Of a stretch of 64,000 nucleotides of DNA, positions 14,641-15,468 are shown piece after piece. The first letter of the stretch is position 1. Each line of letters starts with the position of its first letter. The stretch is taken from positions 15,486 through 79,485 of IMG/VR virus record IMGVR_UViG_2740892219_000010, one strand, 5' to 3'. A program made the translations under genes and the position numbers. The notes beneath the pieces were generated by a model. It ran no database searches. It was not told where the DNA came from and saw only the letters and a list, made by a program, of their open reading frames with translations. This DNA comes from a virus (lineage: Duplodnaviria; Heunggongvirae; Uroviricota; Caudoviricetes).

Positions 14641-15468
14641 ATGTTAAATTTTAGGTGTCGTTATATGGATGTTAATGAATTTCCACCGGGAGTAATCGAG
14701 CATCTTGGCTGGTATGTCTACCGCCTGATTGACCCGAGAGATGGTAGTACGTTCTACGTAGGGAAAGGGAAAGGTAATCGTGTCTTTGCCCATATGCGCG
14801 GTGAGGTTGCTGCAGTGGATGATGATGAGTTACTGAGTAACAAACTCAAACAACTTCGGGAGATCAGATTAGCTGGTCTTGAAGTTATCCATGTTATACA
14901 TCGGCACGGTATAGCTGAAGAAAAGACGGCTTACGAAGTTGAAGCAGCACTCATAGACGCCTATCCCGGCTTGACTAACATCATGAACGGTGCTGGCAGT
15001 AACGAGTTCGGTGCTGCACACATCAAAGAACTAATCGCTACGTACCAACCTGAAACAATTACGTTCCAACATAAAACCCTAATGATATCGGTTAACAGGA
15101 GCTCAAAGGATATTGACCTCTATGATGCTGTACGTTTTAGCTGGCGTGTCAGCCTTGAACGCGCTCGTAAGGCAGAGGTCATACTGGCGACAGTAAGAGG
15201 AATTGTGAGGGGTGTATATATCGCAGATGAGTGGCTCAAGTCTACCCGTGAGAATTTTCCAGAGATACCATCATGGGATGCGGATGATGAATTTGAAGCT
15301 ACGCAAAGTTCCCGCTTTGGGTTCCGGGGTAGGGCTGCACCTCCTGAGATTACACAGCTTTATTTAGGTAAGAAGATCCCTGATGATCTCAGAAAAAAAG
15401 GTGCTATGTCTCCTGTGAGATATTCTCCCGGATTTGATTTCGGAATGGAACTGGATTTTAGATCGTAG
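14641..15468 (+). CDS. GIY-YIG nuclease-family protein (homing-endonuclease-like)
   Basis: N-terminal [29 protein letters not shown] fits the GIY..YVG..R..H signature; likely true start ATG 14665 (MDVNEF). Confidence 0.6.

Follow-up and report, generated by a model that had tools for sequence, protein, structure and literature searches.

The 64,000-nucleotide stretch of viral DNA analysed here (the window) contains two tandem prophages adjoining a tRNA Leu(taa)-Cys-Gly cluster, the tRNAs of which are located at positions 63000–63300. The first prophage is lambdoid and occupies approximately positions 1–28030. From the terminase to DUF1367, its backbone is 96–97% identical to that of a prophage of E. 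coli E24377A. The second prophage, which extends from ~28.1 kb to ~62.5 kb, belongs to the P2 family and resembles phages 520873 and P88 (Table 1). Relative to the related prophage of E24377A, the lambdoid prophage has a variable region between DUF1367 and ORF6N, from ~9355 to 15560, in which the cargo is largely different. The only long piece common to the window and E24377A within this region is the segment 14488–15530. It is a cassette of ~1,045 bp composed of a nuclease gene, identified below as CMoRE, together with ~175 bp upstream and ~60 bp downstream of the gene. The cassette is the rightmost unit of the variable region and adjoins the conserved ORF6N antirepressor gene. A sequence-only reading of the window had described a free-standing GIY-YIG nuclease gene as the last cassette of a cargo island, and this description holds, the position being borne out by the comparison with E24377A.

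Table 1 Positions of genes and sequence features of the window and of related loci.
Feature	Position	Strand	Evidence or remarks
Terminase, lambdoid prophage	990-2954		
Lysis genes, lambdoid prophage	5400-6534		
Q antiterminator, lambdoid prophage	6647-7318		
DUF1367, lambdoid prophage	7608-8204		
Double-hairpin element, copies in the window	11484-11507, 12363-12430, 13262-13329, 14488-14549	+	
Double-hairpin boundary element, left cassette edge	14487..14552	+	L half 14488-14513, R half 14526-14549
Mobile cassette	14488..15530	+	blastn against E. coli E24377A: 97.3% identity, both flanks differ
Promoter-like site TTGTCA, 17-nt spacer, TATTTT	14603..14631	+	consensus scan 9/12; putative function
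PD-T4-3 / CMoRE coding sequence	14665..15468	+	267 aa plus stop; PADLOC, PDB and phrog_5356 matches
GIY-YIG nuclease domain	14665..15000	+	C-terminal boundary approximate; PF22945; Y17/Y19/Y31, R39, E93
DDDE codons, residues 52-55	14818..14829	+	four consecutive acidic residues, autoinhibitory lid loop over active site
Predicted 5hmC/5ghmC-sensing C-terminal domain	15031..15435	+	~residues 123-257, start approximate; includes Y127
10-residue C-terminal tail (258-267)	15436-15465	+	crystallised 257-aa proteins lack the tail
Strong hairpin, convergent CMoRE/ORF6N gap	15696..15729	.	15-nt arms, 93% complementary; -32.8 kcal/mol, z = -7.25
ORF6N antirepressor, lambdoid prophage	15856-16692		
DnaB-type helicase, lambdoid prophage	18542-19957		
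O-like initiator, lambdoid prophage	19947-20702		
YdaT, lambdoid prophage	20963-21439		
Integrase, lambdoid prophage	26982-28028		
Integrase, P2-family prophage	28320-29321		
GpA, P2-family prophage	33346-36168		
ParM, P2-family prophage	36245-37204		
Portal and terminase, P2-family prophage	39134-41931		
Double-hairpin element, copies in phage P2_2H4 (L011)	3979-4002, 5158-5183		
Double-hairpin element, copies in E24377A locus (L001)	9095-9120, 10294-10319, 12039-12062		

The open reading frame at 14641–15468 on the plus strand, encoding 275 amino acids, is present in the window as the sequence-only reading had described it. The frame is intact and is equipped with a Shine–Dalgarno sequence; however, translation very probably begins at 14665, the second ATG in frame, to yield a product of 267 amino acids, and the upstream ATG at 14641 is probably unused. 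The start at 14665 is preferred because the Shine–Dalgarno sequence AGGTG at 14653–14657 lies 7 nt upstream of it, and because the PADLOC and PDB matches begin at that methionine. Furthermore, RefSeq begins the E24377A orthologue at the same methionine, and gene callers have recorded the exact 267-residue product on at least 24 public contigs. Residues are numbered from the methionine at 14665 hereafter.

The GIY-YIG signature reported previously at the N-terminus of the reading frame is present, and Pfam places residues 28–110 (36–118 of the longer frame) in the LEM-3-like GIY-YIG family PF22945 with E = 7.8e-13 and 49.1 bits, above the cut-off of 27. By contrast, the classical GIY-YIG model PF01541, which had been proposed for the search, remains below its Pfam threshold (12.4 versus 22.6 bits), and a scan of the ORF protein against NCBIfam assigned it to no family. 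Pfam has no family over the C-terminal part of the protein, in agreement with what has been described for the family (PMC12923530). The ~180 residues following the signature had been regarded as unassigned; they instead comprise a short linker and the ~135-residue modification-sensing domain of CMoRE.

The gene is nearly identical to that of an already known restriction enzyme, the single-protein PD-T4-3/CMoRE. The PADLOC profile PDLC04031 (PD-T4-3) matches the protein with E = 1.7e-137 and 455 bits over profile positions 1–254 of 256, and phrog_5356 matches it with 1e-132. A search of the PDB retrieved 9U7U/9U7Z (E = 1.4e-164) and 9U75/9U8D (E = 1.3e-151) over 258 residues; these matches are two distinct sequences only, both deposited as 'GIY-YIG domain-containing protein'. 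In ungapped alignments of 257 residues, the window protein is 93.4% identical to CMoRE of E. coli APEC O1 (9U7U) and 85.6% identical to CMoRE of E. coli O157:H7 (9U75). It thus belongs to the same family as PD-T4-3/CMoRE (9U7U, 9U7Z, 9U75, 9U8D) and has the same two-domain 'type I' architecture, and the known genes are likewise single and prophage-borne in E. coli. The window protein differs from these enzymes by 17 and 37 substitutions, respectively, and by a C-terminal extension of 10 residues. Eleven of the 17 positions that differ from the APEC O1 protein are in the sensing domain; most of the 17 changes are conservative, and several introduce the residue of the active O157:H7 enzyme. The C-terminal tail is common to the window and E24377A alleles, whereas the gene of APEC O1 has 774 nt and encodes 257 amino acids.

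The residues that are important for the function of CMoRE are conserved in the window protein. The N-terminal GIY-YIG domain of CMoRE has an extra tyrosine, which results in a GIYxY-YIG motif, and its tyrosines Y17, Y19, and Y31 have been named and mutated (PMC12923530). All three are found in the window protein, in the sequence GWYVYRL...TFYVG, as is R80, which is named in the same study (PMC12923530). The tetramer of CMoRE depends on V92 and L96 (PMC12923530), both of which are present. The active site of CMoRE is controlled by an autoinhibitory lid, an acidic loop of 15 residues between helices alpha2 and alpha3 with four consecutive acidic residues (PMC12923530). Neutralisation of the lid in the 4A mutant produces an enzyme that cuts ordinary DNA and is toxic (PMC12923530). 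In the window protein, the acidic run is DDDE at residues 52–55. [quoted passage not shown] Y127 is conserved in the window protein, and the alignment to 9U7U and 9U75 continues to residue 257. The catalytic arginine and glutamate are putatively R39 and E93, together with N105; the assignment is derived from motif spacing (YVG-x5-R and E-x2-LI-x3-P-x3-N), as the text of PMC12923530 gives no numbers for the arginine and glutamate. The three residues are identical in both crystallised enzymes. None of the catalytic residues, the absence of which would have argued against a nuclease, is missing.

The discovery of the family in 2022, its dependence on DNA modification in 2025, and its structure and mechanism in 2026 have already been published. 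PD-T4-3 was found by functional selection in the E. coli pangenome, and the newly discovered systems included a GIY-YIG nuclease (PMC9519451, Vassallo et al. 2022); its source was strain ECOR68. The phages that it restricts are T2, T4, T6, and other Tevenvirinae; restriction also takes place in a native host, and in the clinical isolate NILS69 the restriction of adsorbing phages was due only to PD-T4-3 and an RM island (10.1101/2024.12.20.629700). A homologue with 48% identity degrades modified T4 DNA but not unmodified DNA of T4-GT7, and its nuclease activity depends on the predicted active-site residues; it also cuts Mu DNA with carbamoylmethyl-adenine (PMC12366544). CMoRE binds and cleaves only DNA containing 5hmC or 5ghmC (PMC12923530, Liu et al. 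2026), and the activity of the family on arabinosyl-hmC is weak. Cleavage requires two modified cytosines and follows the pattern CN11/N9G, leaving 2-nt 3' overhangs; the preferred cofactor is Mg2+ or Mn2+ (PMC12923530). The orthologues have little sequence specificity and cleave modified DNA only (PMC12923530). CMoRE blocks T2, T4, and T6 without killing the cell, which is direct rather than abortive defence, and single-gene clones of three orthologues suffice for it (PMC12923530). All 274 of the 274 systems in a survey had a single component (PMC12923530). The allele of APEC O1 provides weak defence under its native promoter (PMC12923530); therefore, the expression level matters.

The window gene almost certainly encodes a complete single-protein type IV restriction enzyme that acts alone against phage DNA containing 5hmC or 5ghmC. 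Its mode of action can be proposed from the orthologues with 86–93% identity. The protein would form a tetramer organized as a dimer of dimers, in which the C-terminal domain would bind 5-hydroxymethylcytosine or glucosyl-5hmC in DNA. One dimer would read two modified cytosines ~21 bp apart, and the N-terminal GIY-YIG domain would introduce a double-strand cut between them in the CN11/N9G pattern, using Mg2+ or Mn2+. The DDDE loop over the active site would repel ordinary DNA, so unmodified DNA of the host and prophage would be spared and no methyltransferase partner would be needed. Since E. coli DNA is without hmC, a type IV enzyme needs no self-protection. DNA of T-even phages would be degraded early after entry and the cell would survive, as expected for direct defence and not for abortive infection. 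The lambdoid prophage is thus predicted to protect its strain against T-even-type phages with hmC or glucosyl-hmC DNA, which is relevant to the choice of phages for therapy.

The gene was found by megablast, with the gene alone as the query, in 120 of 5,426 complete E. coli genomes, where it is always single-copy and chromosomal. It is annotated there as 'LEM-3-like GIY-YIG domain-containing protein', a name that can now be replaced by a confident functional label. Complete genomes also contain a close relative of the window allele, with 97.9% DNA identity, that carries the annotation of an intact gene.

The surroundings of the cassette differ among the three strains compared. On the right of the E24377A cassette lie an HNH-endonuclease gene and two further genes, absent from the window, and on its left lies an unrelated gene. 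In APEC O1, a different prophage carries the gene at its end, which adjoins ssrA, and a frameshifted DUF262 gene lies next to it, whereas the window gene is in a lambdoid cargo island. The distance between the CMoRE gene and the frameshifted DUF262 gene in APEC O1 (L002 6191-8081) is ~1 kb. Since GmrSD-type type IV enzymes have a domain of the DUF262 family, two genes for hmC-directed nucleases may once have been neighbours there, one of which has now decayed. No methyltransferase or other partner domain was detected in the ORFs adjacent to the window gene. As its neighbours change from one E. coli strain to another, the cassette works alone. The gene is an autonomous single-gene cassette, which fits a type IV enzyme.

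The ~130 bp upstream of the ATG are conserved in all three contexts, and the gene would move with its own promoter region in the ~1 kb cassette and act by itself. The -35 hexamer of the promoter-like site lies inside a perfect palindrome, TTGTCAATTGACA, at 14603–14615. Despite the differing contexts, neither the palindrome nor the -10 region varies among the window, E24377A, and APEC O1 copies, and the palindrome may be an operator for a regulator. An intrinsic-terminator scan detected nothing downstream of the gene. The strong hairpin in the gap between the convergent CMoRE and ORF6N genes lacks a T-run and was therefore not called by the scan. This hairpin, which belongs to the prophage backbone outside the shared cassette, is a candidate for a terminator acting in both directions.

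The nuclease gene had previously been considered either a selfish homing gene or a nuclease effector or sensor of a defence module. A homing endonuclease similar to I-TevI or Seg proteins would cut a site in alleles without the gene and be copied in by repair. The N-terminal position of the GIY-YIG domain in a protein of ~270 residues, the location on a phage genome, and the movement as a small cassette are all compatible with homing. However, a relaxed PDB sequence search (E<=10) retrieved no solved GIY-YIG protein other than CMoRE: I-TevI, UvrC, and Eco29kI were absent, and the remaining matches were at chance level, to alpha2/delta subunits of calcium channels. Therefore, alignment to I-TevI or Seg proteins is impossible at the sequence level. 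Besides the sub-threshold score of PF01541, Pfam shows no NUMOD, zinc-finger, or helix-turn-helix DNA-binding modules, and the C-terminal domain is the modification sensor of CMoRE. The cassette occupies cargo islands in three unrelated contexts rather than a site in or beside a conserved target gene, and the orthologues cleave modified DNA only, with little sequence specificity. Homing is therefore rejected as extremely improbable.

Defence is the part of the alternative proposal that has stood, with sensor and effector united in one protein and no module around it. It is highly improbable that the protein is one component, an effector or a sensor, of a multi-gene system formed with island neighbours such as the 251-residue protein encoded at 13449–14204, even though several small genes of the island that lack characterisation recur together on at least 24 contigs. 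The cassette has entirely different neighbours in E24377A and APEC O1, the gene for the 251-residue protein occurs by itself in P2-like phages, and both the single-gene clones and the survey of the family argue for one component (PMC12923530). A multi-gene module is therefore rejected. A type II restriction-modification system with a GIY-YIG nuclease such as Eco29kI would have a cognate methyltransferase, no domain of which was found in the flanking ORFs. It could also be envisaged that the protein belongs to the CMoRE family but that the window allele is inactive, silenced, or shifted to another DNA modification. The 11 substitutions in the sensing domain and the extra C-terminal tail relative to 9U7U are consistent with such a change, as is the plasticity of the family, illustrated by the 48%-identical homologue acting on carbamoylmethyl-adenine DNA of Mu and by the weak activity on arabinosyl-hmC; the conserved palindrome over the -35 hexamer could be an operator. 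Nevertheless, none of the named functional residues is lost, the substitutions mostly are conservative or yield the residue of the active O157:H7 enzyme, an identical copy is kept on at least 24 contigs, and the relative with 97.9% DNA identity is recorded as intact in the annotation of complete genomes. An inactive or re-targeted allele is thus distinctly unlikely, and an active enzyme of the PD-T4-3/CMoRE type is the preferred reading.

The logic of PD-T4-3/CMoRE is common to PvuRts1I/AbaSI, GmrSD, and McrBC, which also combine a separate modification sensor with a nuclease, lack a methyltransferase, and target T-even DNA. PvuRts1I needs two modified cytosines ~21–22 bp apart and cuts between them. 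The folds are, however, unrelated: a PD-(D/E)XK-type nuclease is combined with an SRA-like domain in PvuRts1I, and GmrSD is built of DUF262/DUF1524, whereas CMoRE combines a GIY-YIG nuclease with a sensing domain without detectable homologues. The likeness of CMoRE to PvuRts1I has been discussed (PMC12923530). The nearest structural relative of the CMoRE nuclease domain is the N-terminal GIY-YIG domain of UvrC (PDB 1YCZ) (PMC12923530). The arrangement of the catalytic tyrosine, arginine, and glutamate is the same in both; however, UvrC acts as a nuclease in repair and contains other domains, and the additional tyrosine of the GIYxY motif and the acidic insertion of 15 residues distinguish CMoRE from it. 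At the sequence level, the PDB search (E<=10) gave no match of the window protein to UvrC. I-TevI and Seg proteins share with the window protein the GIY-YIG catalytic superfamily, a similar overall size, and phage-borne genes. By contrast, the window protein has no detectable similarity to them, its C-terminal domain is different, it has no fixed homing site, and a role in host defence has been demonstrated for its orthologues.

The gene adds one more allele to a published defence enzyme; the observation of further value is a hairpin element at the cassette borders. The cargo units of the island are arrayed head to tail. Each gap between cassettes in the island holds a ~70-nt copy of a double hairpin, and all of the copies are in the plus orientation. 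The copy at the left edge of the CMoRE cassette has perfect arms of 13 nt and a folding energy of -31.8 kcal/mol (z = -4.8). The L halves, with the pattern ATGTCCGCT..CACAGCGGAC, are located at 12363, 13262, and 14488, and the R halves, which resemble their core GTCCGCTCTGTGCCAGGAGCGGAC, start at 11484, 12407, 13306, and 14526. Shuffled sequence contained 0.02 matches. Three cassettes, encoding the 125-residue protein, DUF6650, and the 251-residue protein, are bracketed in the order R, cargo, L. The CMoRE gene comes after the final L+R junction, and an L half is missing to its right. In phage P2_2H4, the cargo encoding the 251-residue protein is bracketed in the same manner in the Z/fun hot spot, with R just after the tail-fibre assembly gene and L before the sheath gene. 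The breakpoints of homology fall inside the element, at 14488 in the comparison with E24377A and at 14509 in that with P2_2H4.

The R core is present in 41 IMG/VR contigs, where 30 distinct flanks adjoin it. An ORF of 175 amino acids precedes it in ~18 of these contigs, and the one such ORF that was scanned encodes a tail-fibre assembly protein. The cargo after the R core in 10 sampled contigs is diverse; apart from DUF5677, it includes proteins of defence type, namely TIR and PDC-S31 proteins, AbiEii, and a trypsin-like protease. Rfam, searched in evalue mode over positions 9000–16000, has no family for the element, the sole match being a snoRNA at E=1, which is noise; no paper on the hairpin core sequence was found in the searchable literature. 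The element may serve as a recombination boundary for cassette swaps between the hot spots of different prophage families, or else as a terminator or insulator. A dedicated exchange site, acting as a recombination boundary or recognised by a protein and shuffling defence cassettes between unrelated prophage families in an integron-like manner, is a tentative and rather doubtful interpretation. If the element were a recombination site, it would help to explain the exchange of cargo among the defence hot spots of prophages.

The gene at 13449–14204 on the minus strand encodes a membrane/wHTH-like protein of 251 amino acids, the N-terminal segment of which is hydrophobic; it matches phrog_36054 and no Pfam family above threshold. 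Its DNA is 96.4% identical to the sole Z/fun hot-spot cargo of the P2-like phages P2_2H4 and 9W, which has the tail-fibre assembly gene on one side and the sheath gene on the other. The gene is a candidate for an uncharacterised defence or superinfection-exclusion gene. The genes for the 125-residue protein (phrog_4155, 11872–12249, minus strand) and DUF6650 (12692–13168, plus strand) form a divergent pair with an L+R copy of the hairpin element between them, and the pair recurs with 99–100% identity in three IMG/VR viral contigs (L015, L017, and L034). The plus-strand gene at 10131–10619 encodes an M78/ImmA-type metallopeptidase (PF06114; PADLOC capP-like, 2.4e-25; RmrA-like). Directly downstream of it, the gene at 10629–11234 on the plus strand encodes a 201-residue protein (phrog_5346), and the two genes are closely preceded by an ORF of 77 amino acids that has been called on related contigs. 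In layout, the metallopeptidase and the 201-residue protein resemble a regulator pair of the CapP/CapH style or a small module for defence or with a toxin.
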